Source: Escherichia coli (GTDB lineage: Bacteria > Pseudomonadota > Gammaproteobacteria > Enterobacterales > Enterobacteriaceae). Taken from it: a stretch of 64,000 nt of DNA. The DNA lies in the NCBI RefSeq assembly GCF_003334335.1, contig NZ_QOWQ01000010.1; one strand, given 5' to 3'. Positions within the stretch are counted from its first letter, which is position 1, and each line of letters starts with the position of its first letter. The notes under the pieces are model-generated. The model saw only the letters and a list, made by a program, of their open reading frames with translations, did not search any database and was not told the DNA's origin. Position numbers and translations under genes: made by a program. This document shows, one piece after another, positions 56,226-57,490 of the stretch.

Positions 56226-56942
56226 TCACAAGTAGACTACGCTTATCACAGCTTTCCCATCAAGTTCGATTTTTTCTGAACCGCCTAAATCATTCGCGAT
56301 AGATGCGCTCACCTGAAGCGGTATAATGGCGTTCGTTACAGGAGTTGGGGTTGTTTCACCTGGTTTTACAAAGGTGTAATAATAGCTTTGATCGACTGCA
56401 AGCGGATAAGCGGTGAGCGTTTGCCATGCTCTTTTTTGCCCTGTTATGACGGCATCTGCACCTGCTATTGATACAGCTAACGTCTGGCTACCATTGCTGG
56501 CACTAATGTTGTTGCTATCAATTAACACGGCATAACTACCGATATTTTTATTATCTTTTGTTTTCCCTAAGCCGAATAAGCGCGTTGTCTGGCTAATATA
56601 ACCTCCGCCATTTAAGGTATATTTTACACCACTCTGACCCCCACTATCTTTTCCGGTGGTCATACTATCCATTCGTGTATCACGAGCGGTAATCGCAATG
56701 CCGGTAGCGGATTCGCAAGTTATAGTCATATTAATATTACGTGTTCCAATCTGTGTGTAGTGCTGCGTTGAAAGTCTATTGACTGAATGACTACCGAAGT
56801 TAACAACTCCGCCGTTGCTTAGTATTGGAGTACAAGCTGCAGCTTCCAGAGTCACCTTAACGTCAATTGATACTCTATCAGCGGCTTGCGCTGACATGGC
56901 AAAAAAGGCACTTCCGGCAATCAGTAATTTTACATTGTTCAT
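56226..56942 (-). CDS. yhcF: DUF1120 family secreted protein (putative fimbrial-like subunit), paralog of GltF
   Basis: 238-aa ORF with signal peptide; shares motifs with gltF product (ACTP..GG.V.FG, NITC, GLG, LDGxAxISVxYL C-terminus). Confidence 0.85.
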   Translation of the reverse strand: MNNVKLLIAGSAFFAMSAQAADRVSIDVKVTLEAAACTPILSNGGVVNFGSHSVNRLSTQHYTQIGTRNINMTITCESATGIAITARDTRMDSMTTGKDSGGQSGVKYTLNGGGYISQTTRLFGLGKTKDNKNIGSYAVLIDSNNISASNGSQTLAVSIAGADAVITGQKRAWQTLTAYPLAVDQSYYYTFVKPGETTPTPVTNAIIPLQVSASIANDLGGSEKIELDGKAVISVVYL

Positions 56943-57490
56943 TTTGCCTCCACCAGGACCGTCAGATTGCCTGTAATATCTGTCATGTCGGTTAGTTCCC
57001 CTTCATCCTTAAAAGCTGGAGCCATTGTCAGTGTGAGGCTAACGCTTTTACCGCTATCAATTACCACTTCTTGACCATTTTGCATAAACACCAGCCAATT
57101 ATTGGGGGAAGTACTAATTGATGCTGTTCCTGTGCTGCCCGGATTGTCATTTTTGCCACTGGCTAACGCCAGGTCGAGATTGTTACTACCTGAAAATGCA
57201 TCGCTGGCGATCAGATTTAATGAACCATTCGGGCCAAATCCAAATCCGTTGTTGGAAATATTAGCGGTATTCAACTGAACACGAATATGAGCGTCCTGAT
57301 CGCATTGCATTACCAGCGTGATTGTTCTGTCTGCTAATTGTGTTGTTTTACCCCGGTCAACTTGGCGCATGGCAGCACTTCGTTTGCCATAGTCGATATT
57401 TTGTATGCTACTGGAGATATTACACTCTGCCTGAGCGGCCATGGCGAAGTTCAGCAGCAGGCATCCTGTTATTATCCGTTTCATTGGCAC
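56939..57490 (-). CDS. yhcE: putative fimbrial-like secreted protein, intact
   Basis: 183-aa ORF with signal peptide MPMKRIITGCLLLNFAMAAQA, contiguous with yhcD and yhcF; no insertion sequence interrupts it. Confidence 0.8.
   Translation of the reverse strand: MPMKRIITGCLLLNFAMAAQAECNISSSIQNIDYGKRSAAMRQVDRGKTTQLADRTITLVMQCDQDAHIRVQLNTANISNNGFGFGPNGSLNLIASDAFSGSNNLDLALASGKNDNPGSTGTASISTSPNNWLVFMQNGQEVVIDSGKSVSLTLTMAPAFKDEGELTDMTDITGNLTVLVEAK

Follow-up and report, generated by a model that had tools for sequence, protein, structure and literature searches.

The fimbrial-cluster gene yhcE, which is split by the insertion sequence (IS) IS5 in Escherichia coli K-12, is intact in the 64,000-nucleotide E. 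coli sequence analyzed here (the whole stretch is referred to as the window). Our comparisons show that this uninterrupted gene is the ancestral allele, that IS5 was gained in the K-12 laboratory lineage, and that the window strain never had this insertion. Modeling of the gene product suggests a pilin-like protein, which we tentatively place at the tip of the fiber. An ancestral allele within a beta-class chaperone–usher cluster is very probably the best explanation of the locus, and a tip-subunit mechanism for YhcE is its more tentative part.

yhcE is uninterrupted and its IS5 target is empty

The longest open reading frame (ORF) at the locus in the program-made ORF list starts with GTG and runs without interruption through 56939..57490 on the minus strand, the continuous 183-amino acid (aa) ORF that the initial annotation had described. 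The RefSeq start of yhcE is the ATG at 57484, which gives an annotated gene of 546 nt. The two features on which the allele call depends are as follows.

56939..57484, minus strand: yhcE, intact; 181 aa, with the longest ORF reaching the GTG at 57490 (183 aa); equal to K-12 yhcE minus IS5 and one CTAA
57114..57117, no strand: empty IS5 target CTAA; single copy in the window, duplicated around IS5 in K-12

A base-by-base comparison with the K-12 reference MG1655 (NZ_CP032667.1) located the difference between the two alleles. The gene and its flanking genes are the same in both genomes. In MG1655, however, yhcE is annotated as two partial pseudogenes, both named "YhcE family protein", on either side of an IS5-family transposase gene. 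The insertion point lies directly after window position 57117, and the block of 1199 extra bases that splits the gene consists of a 1195-bp IS5, whose terminal inverted repeats, GGAAGGTGCGAA(C/T)AAG, are visible in MG1655, and a second copy of the 4-bp target CTAA. The insertion cuts yhcE after coding sequence (CDS) nt 367, in codon 123 of 181, i.e., after residue 122. Once IS5 and one CTAA are taken out, the K-12 gene is 100% identical to that of the window and encodes the same protein. Neither the 1195-bp element nor a CTAA duplication in yhcE is present in the window. The initial annotation had stated that yhcE is split by IS5 in K-12 and had predicted that an alignment to MG1655 would show an indel of roughly 1.2 kb. 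The alignment places an indel of exactly 1199 bp at 57114–57117, and the statement agrees with the MG1655 annotation and with the literature: the E. coli W genome paper gives IS5::yhcE for K-12 (PMC3032704), and the 11 IS5 sites of BW25113 include yhcE (PMC11677980).

The wider claim that no IS-like sequence occurs in the window also holds. A blastn search of the window for IS5 matched only chance words of 12–17 nt, and the collinear EC416 and MG1655 annotations of the span contain no transposase gene except that of the K-12 IS5. The 35 ORFs of at least 250 aa in the window correspond in position to housekeeping or cluster genes annotated in EC416, with the exception of one shadow ORF antisense to accC. 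Together, these three results indicate that there is no IS anywhere in the window. EC416 is likewise collinear with the window, and its DNA across the yhcE CDS is identical, with no differences within the yhcE interval; the product is named there "YhcE family protein" (WP_000821351.1), so that the window protein, being identical to it, belongs to this RefSeq family. A further homologue, P0001, matches the window YhcE with 99% identity over 100% of the query.

The source of the window is closely related to K-12

Against 65.7 kb of MG1655, blastn aligned the whole window in three collinear blocks. These contain 33 single-nucleotide polymorphisms (SNPs) over 64 kb: 20 in positions 1–31706, 10 in 31475–57117, and 3 in 57114–64000. 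The remaining differences are the absence of IS5, an additional unit in a 91-bp repeat, and a 1-bp indel. The indel, at 4668, falls in yhdW, encoding an amino acid ATP-binding cassette (ABC) transporter substrate-binding protein, which in the window (3710–4735) is an intact 341-aa ORF; MG1655 is one base short at the position matching 4668, and yhdW is annotated there as frameshifted. Like the IS5 insertion, the yhdW frameshift is a K-12-specific lesion that the window lacks. The repeat is a tandem array at 31384–31798, between yhdP and tldD, with 4.5 copies, 97% match, and units resembling repetitive extragenic palindromic sequences; the window has one unit more than MG1655 and EC416 alike. 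Within the fimbrial cluster, the only amino acid difference from K-12 is YhcD N717S.

Could the window instead derive from a K-12 strain in which IS5 was precisely excised, making the allele a revertant rather than an ancestral form? The yhcE gene is identical to that of K-12 minus IS5, and the region is only ~0.05% diverged, as this reading would have it. It does not account for the 33 SNPs, the intact yhdW (which carries a 1-bp deletion in K-12), or the different repeat copy number, and the empty site is common to 788 genomes (see below). The first three of these findings led us to reject precise excision from a K-12 derivative, the probability of which we regard as negligible. Because of the 33 SNPs and the intact yhdW, together with the repeat copy difference, the source of the window is a close K-12 relative, at ~0.05% divergence, and not a K-12 derivative. 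The earlier statement that the source is not MG1655-like at yhcE is borne out by these SNPs, by yhdW, and by the empty IS5 site.

Six of the SNPs relative to MG1655 lie within ~80 bp, at 350–427, around the second 5S rRNA copy of an rRNA operon end (5S, tRNA-Thr, 5S). This SNP cluster may reflect gene conversion between rrn operons.

The intact allele is the ordinary state among carriers of the site

Allele frequencies were assessed in 5,426 complete E. coli genomes with 200-bp probes, a site being called when at least 80% of the probe was covered. The probe centered on the empty site matched in 1,141 of the 5,426 genomes, and in 788 of these 1,141, the site is empty (at least 80% of the probe covered at one place). 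The probe for the yhcE/IS5 junction was covered to at least 80% in 351 genomes; empty and filled sites together account for 1,139 of the 1,141. All IS5-filled genomes that were listed and recognizable by name, a subset of the 351, are K-12 laboratory strains or transconjugants: MG1655, DH5alpha, BW2952, BW25113, DH10B, C600, EC600, MC1061, MC4100, AB1157, J53, XL10-Gold, NBRC 3301, and DSM 498. A few carriers have other lesions, such as IS2 in yhcF or yhcD, or deletions. Given 788 empty and 351 filled sites, with the recognizable filled genomes all K-12 derivatives, the intact allele is ordinary and the IS5 insertion is a marker of the K-12 lineage. Intact yhcE is the normal, majority state among carriers of the site.

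yhcE belongs to a five-gene beta-class chaperone–usher cluster

The genes all lie on the minus strand, in the order gltD, gltF, yhcA, yhcD, yhcE, yhcF, and then yhcG. The cluster neighbors of yhcE and the island that contains them are as follows.

56226..56942, minus strand: yhcF; 238 aa, DUF1120 fimbrial-subunit-like, with an N-terminal extension and C-terminal VVYL
57481..59862, minus strand: yhcD, outer-membrane usher; 793 aa, matching NF011832 over its full length with 1272.5 bits (cut-off 723)
59883..60557, minus strand: yhcA, PapD-like periplasmic chaperone; 224 aa, matching NF007392 with 319.7 bits (cut-off 183)
60729..61493, minus strand: gltF, DUF1120 protein and putative major subunit; 254 aa, paralogue of yhcF
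56170..62050, no strand: gltF-yhcADEF island; 5.9 kb between yhcG and gltD, with 43.1% GC compared with 50.5% for the window

All five cluster ORFs, including the 181-aa yhcE, are full length. The overlaps of "a few bp" that had been noted between yhcE and its neighbors are 4 bp each: ATGA joins the yhcD stop to the yhcE start at 57481–57484, and ATGA again joins the yhcE stop to the yhcF start at 56939–56942. ATGA overlaps at both ends of yhcE are the usual layout of translationally coupled genes. GltF and YhcF are paralogues (30% identity, E 6e-26), and each is identical to a RefSeq protein named "DUF1120 domain-containing". With a PapD-like chaperone, a usher of the YhcD subfamily, and DUF1120-type subunits flanking the assembly genes, the cluster has the composition of a beta-class chaperone–usher system. 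Homologues of YhcE of 181 aa, at 48–84% identity, are present in other Escherichia, and a wider family of ~180-aa proteins is encoded directly downstream of beta-class ushers; these two observations indicate that yhcE is a genuine, conserved gene rather than an ORF arising by chance.

The island is patchily distributed within E. coli. Its 3.7-kb yhcF-yhcD segment is present in 1,156 of the 5,426 complete genomes (21%), always at identities of at least 99%, and 79% are without it. We considered whether the noncarriers might hold a diverged copy of the cluster and rejected this possibility: a distant blastn search found no copies beyond the 1,156 genomes recovered by megablast, all of them at identities of at least 99%. 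In O157:H7, homology to the window ends at 56169/56170 and resumes at 62051, so that 5,881 bp are missing; yhcG there adjoins gltD with 54 bp of unrelated sequence between them. YhcE homologues with 59–80% identity occur in E. ruysiae, E. albertii, and further Escherichia, those of E. ruysiae and E. albertii having 59–78%. Homologues in other Escherichia, along with patchy carriage in E. coli, point to a cluster that is old in the genus and patchy within E. coli. Del Canto et al. 2017 (PMC5216030) found the beta-class yhc locus only in phylogroup A among the strains that they studied.

The gene that adjoins the island, yhcG (54914–56041, encoding a PDDEXK nuclease domain), is also polymorphic. 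In ATCC 8739-like genomes, a transposase replaces or interrupts it, and genomes whose match stops just past nanQ lack it.

YhcE is predicted to adopt a pilin fold

Published descriptions call the function of YhcE unclear (PMC5216030). We built a profile from ten Escherichia homologues and searched it against 1.84 billion representative sequences, which yielded 119 YhcE relatives, mostly of 175–200 aa. An alignment of 43 full-length relatives has just two invariant columns, the cysteines C21 and C61; YhcE thus has the conserved cysteine pair near the mature start that is expected of a pilin subunit. The AlphaFold2 model of YhcE computed from this alignment is all-beta and confident, with a predicted local distance difference test (pLDDT) score of 91.1 and a predicted template modeling (pTM) score of 0.83. 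Its best 22 fold matches in the PDB are chaperone–usher pilins or pilin-containing complexes, with the exception of CanA at rank 13, and include the CS20 pilin, the PapG pilin domain, FimG, PapE, FimA, PapA, and CfaB, with probabilities of ~1.0. The predicted structure thus has an immunoglobulin (Ig)-like pilin fold.

An hhalign comparison of the YhcE profile with YhcF (E 1.6e-4) and with GltF (E 2.4e-5) aligned only the N-terminal C...DYG...C segment, over 44–53 columns. Among the 43 family members, DUF1120 is matched by 15 at E ≤ 0.1 and by none at E ≤ 0.001. A search of the YhcE profile against PDB sequences returned nothing relevant, the chance matches to PLD4 having E values of 0.11 or worse. 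From the modeled fold, we conclude that YhcE is probably a divergent pilin-fold subunit.

The label "UPF0056 membrane protein" given in a 2026 interactome paper was not used, as it does not fit a 181-aa secreted all-beta YhcE; the same paper predicts contacts of YhcE with fimbrial chaperones, which are compatible with a pilin-like subunit. In three very long proteins, P0045, P0090, and P0103 (2,098–4,559 aa), the central part of the YhcE profile is matched in 9–16 repeated stretches, and these may be repetitive Ig-like surface proteins.

A candidate tip subunit paired with YhcF

In 43 of the 43 aligned relatives, the first invariant cysteine lies 1–6 residues past the apparent signal-peptide cut; in YhcE, the sequence reads ...AMAAQA/ECNISS. 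YhcF and GltF instead have 16–18 residues with alternating hydrophobics before the equivalent cysteine (ADRVSIDVKVTLEAAAC and TDSTDTELTIIGEYTPGAC), the N-terminal peptide of YhcF being ADRVSIDVKVTLEAA. These stretches have the character of donor-strand extensions. YhcE has no such extension before its first cysteine and thus appears, from its sequence, to lack a donor strand. In classical chaperone–usher pili, a missing donor strand is a property of the distal tip module, as in FimH and PapG.

Gene order and gene fusions bear on the relation of YhcE to YhcF. The order of a usher gene, a yhcE-like gene overlapping it by 4 nt, and a DUF1120 gene is kept in distant clusters. At one distant locus (L009), the usher is 36% identical and the YhcF-like product 35% identical to those of the window; at another (L011), the full architecture of DUF1120, PapD_N, Usher, YhcE-like, and DUF1120 proteins is found, with PF06551 matches. 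The 927-bp contig of another protein, P0032, has no informative neighbors. Long relatives of 374–398 aa make up 14 of the 119, and 13 of these 14 have two matched stretches. Three of them were read, and one, P0053, was compared domain by domain: its N-terminal domain is YhcE-like (hhalign probability 99.5%, E 4e-22), and its C-terminal domain, ending in IEIVYL, is YhcF-like (BLASTP E 1e-19). The other two, P0047 and P0057, carry C...DYG...C motifs in each half and end in the same way at the C terminus. Natural fusions of this kind, of 375–394 aa, suggest that YhcE and YhcF function as a single unit in which YhcE takes the distal, N-terminal side.

We tentatively propose, with somewhat less than even confidence, that YhcE is the tip subunit of beta-class fibers, forming a split adhesin with YhcF. 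In this mechanism, YhcA would chaperone the subunits and the YhcD usher would export them. YhcE, with a pilin fold but no donor strand, would enter first and could occupy only the distal tip of the fiber. The N-terminal extension of YhcF would complement and hold YhcE as a donor strand, making the pair the equivalent of a two-domain tip adhesin divided between two proteins, and GltF would be the polymerizing subunit added behind YhcE–YhcF. The K-12 IS5 would remove YhcE residues 123–181, the C-terminal third including the C-terminal strand. It would likely also be polar on yhcF, probably lowering yhcF expression, and would block or cripple fiber assembly; the window allele would permit assembly if the operon is transcribed.

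The proposed pair resembles the two-domain tip adhesins FimH and PapG of classical chaperone–usher pili, whose distal module likewise has no N-terminal donor strand. The predicted fold of YhcE is Ig- and pilin-like, with the PapG pilin domain among its best matches, and in fused relatives, a pilin-type domain follows the YhcE-like domain. In contrast to FimH and PapG, the E. coli YhcE and YhcF modules are separate genes, YhcE has no detectable sequence homology to these adhesins and no known ligand, and its tip location is inferred.

Evidence against a tip role and against an active cluster

Several observations weigh against the proposed role, either of YhcE in the fiber or of the fiber itself. 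The TM-scores of the fold matches are low, at 0.32–0.42 normalized by query and 0.37–0.54 by target, and root-mean-square deviations are high. Pfam reports only a subthreshold DUF1120 match on YhcE (E 0.11, residues 30–70), and the NCBIfam model PRK15301 scores 54 bits against a cut-off of 226; YhcE is thus matched at threshold by neither the Pfam Fimbrial nor the DUF1120 profile. Signal-peptide cleavage, from which the missing extension is read, was judged by eye and not by a prediction tool. YhcE ends in VEAK and not in the penultimate-Tyr motif of GltF and YhcF. As for the cluster, the numbers of promoter- and terminator-like sites in the island do not exceed those in shuffled sequence, a result that is uninformative about expression, and deletion of yhc in an enterotoxigenic E. 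coli (ETEC) strain with an intact locus left adhesion to Caco-2 cells unchanged (PMC5216030). A TTTACA-16-TATACT site lies ~50 nt upstream of gltF and was given no weight.

The absence of the C-terminal Tyr motif, the failure to reach any fimbrial Pfam or NCBIfam threshold, and the modest fold similarity would also suit a YhcE that has a pilin fold but sits elsewhere than at the tip, whether as an assembly terminator or anchor, as a periplasmic regulator of the usher, or as a nonpolymerizing accessory protein. The known terminators PapH and FimI retain the N-terminal extension. The extension is absent in all 43 of the 43 family members, unlike in these terminators, and the fusions, with a YhcE-like domain ahead of a YhcF-like pilin domain, match the layout of two-domain tip adhesins. 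We consider a nontip position of YhcE rather unlikely.

The remaining observations raise the alternative that the cluster is cryptic with or without IS5; the island would then be silent in nature, and an intact yhcE would have no phenotypic consequence. AT-richness is typical of silenced horizontally acquired DNA. The island is AT-rich, at 43% GC, and the GC content upstream of gltF falls to 35–39%. Promoter-like sites not exceeding chance and the lack of a Caco-2 adhesion phenotype upon yhc deletion (PMC5216030) point the same way, as do the IS2 insertions or deletions in yhcF and yhcD of other carriers, which suggest weak selection. On the other hand, the five ORFs are full length in the window, and 788 genomes have no interruption within the 200 bp of yhcE covered by the probe. 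In addition, the length and sequence of YhcE are kept across Escherichia and in distant clusters, which argues for purifying selection. A cryptic cluster is in our judgment a plausible outcome, though not quite the more probable one. The intact ORFs may permit a functional cluster in the window strain, as the initial annotation had suggested. The literature offers no production data for beta-class pili (PMC5216030), and a literature search combining "DUF1120" and "fimbria" found no papers.

Significance of the intact allele and of the YhcE proposal

The IS5 polymorphism of yhcE is already published, and the window is one more example of a common allele. Del Canto et al. found all ETEC yhc carriers free of IS, with intact YhcE matching 353 database entries (PMC5216030), and Król et al. 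reported the absence of IS5 from yhcE in E. coli C (PMC6805351; bioRxiv 10.1101/523134). The loci of those phylogroup A ETEC strains and of E. coli C have the same IS-free order gltF-yhcA-yhcD-yhcE-yhcF and the 717-bp form of yhcF, as in K-12, and show no substantial difference from the window. Since the K-12 lesion and its absence elsewhere are known and the empty site is the majority state, the allele as such matters little. In combination, an empty yhcE site and an intact yhdW serve as a strain marker, identifying a close K-12 relative that is not a K-12 laboratory derivative.

The sole novelty is a testable proposal for what YhcE does: it would be a tip subunit that pairs with YhcF. If true, a tip role would change the published picture, in which beta-class pili are without tip subunits and the function of YhcE is unpredictable, and it would explain how a single IS5 in yhcE renders the K-12 cluster cryptic. 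The hypothesis could serve as a guide to initial functional work on beta-class fimbriae, carried out in an intact-allele strain rather than in K-12.
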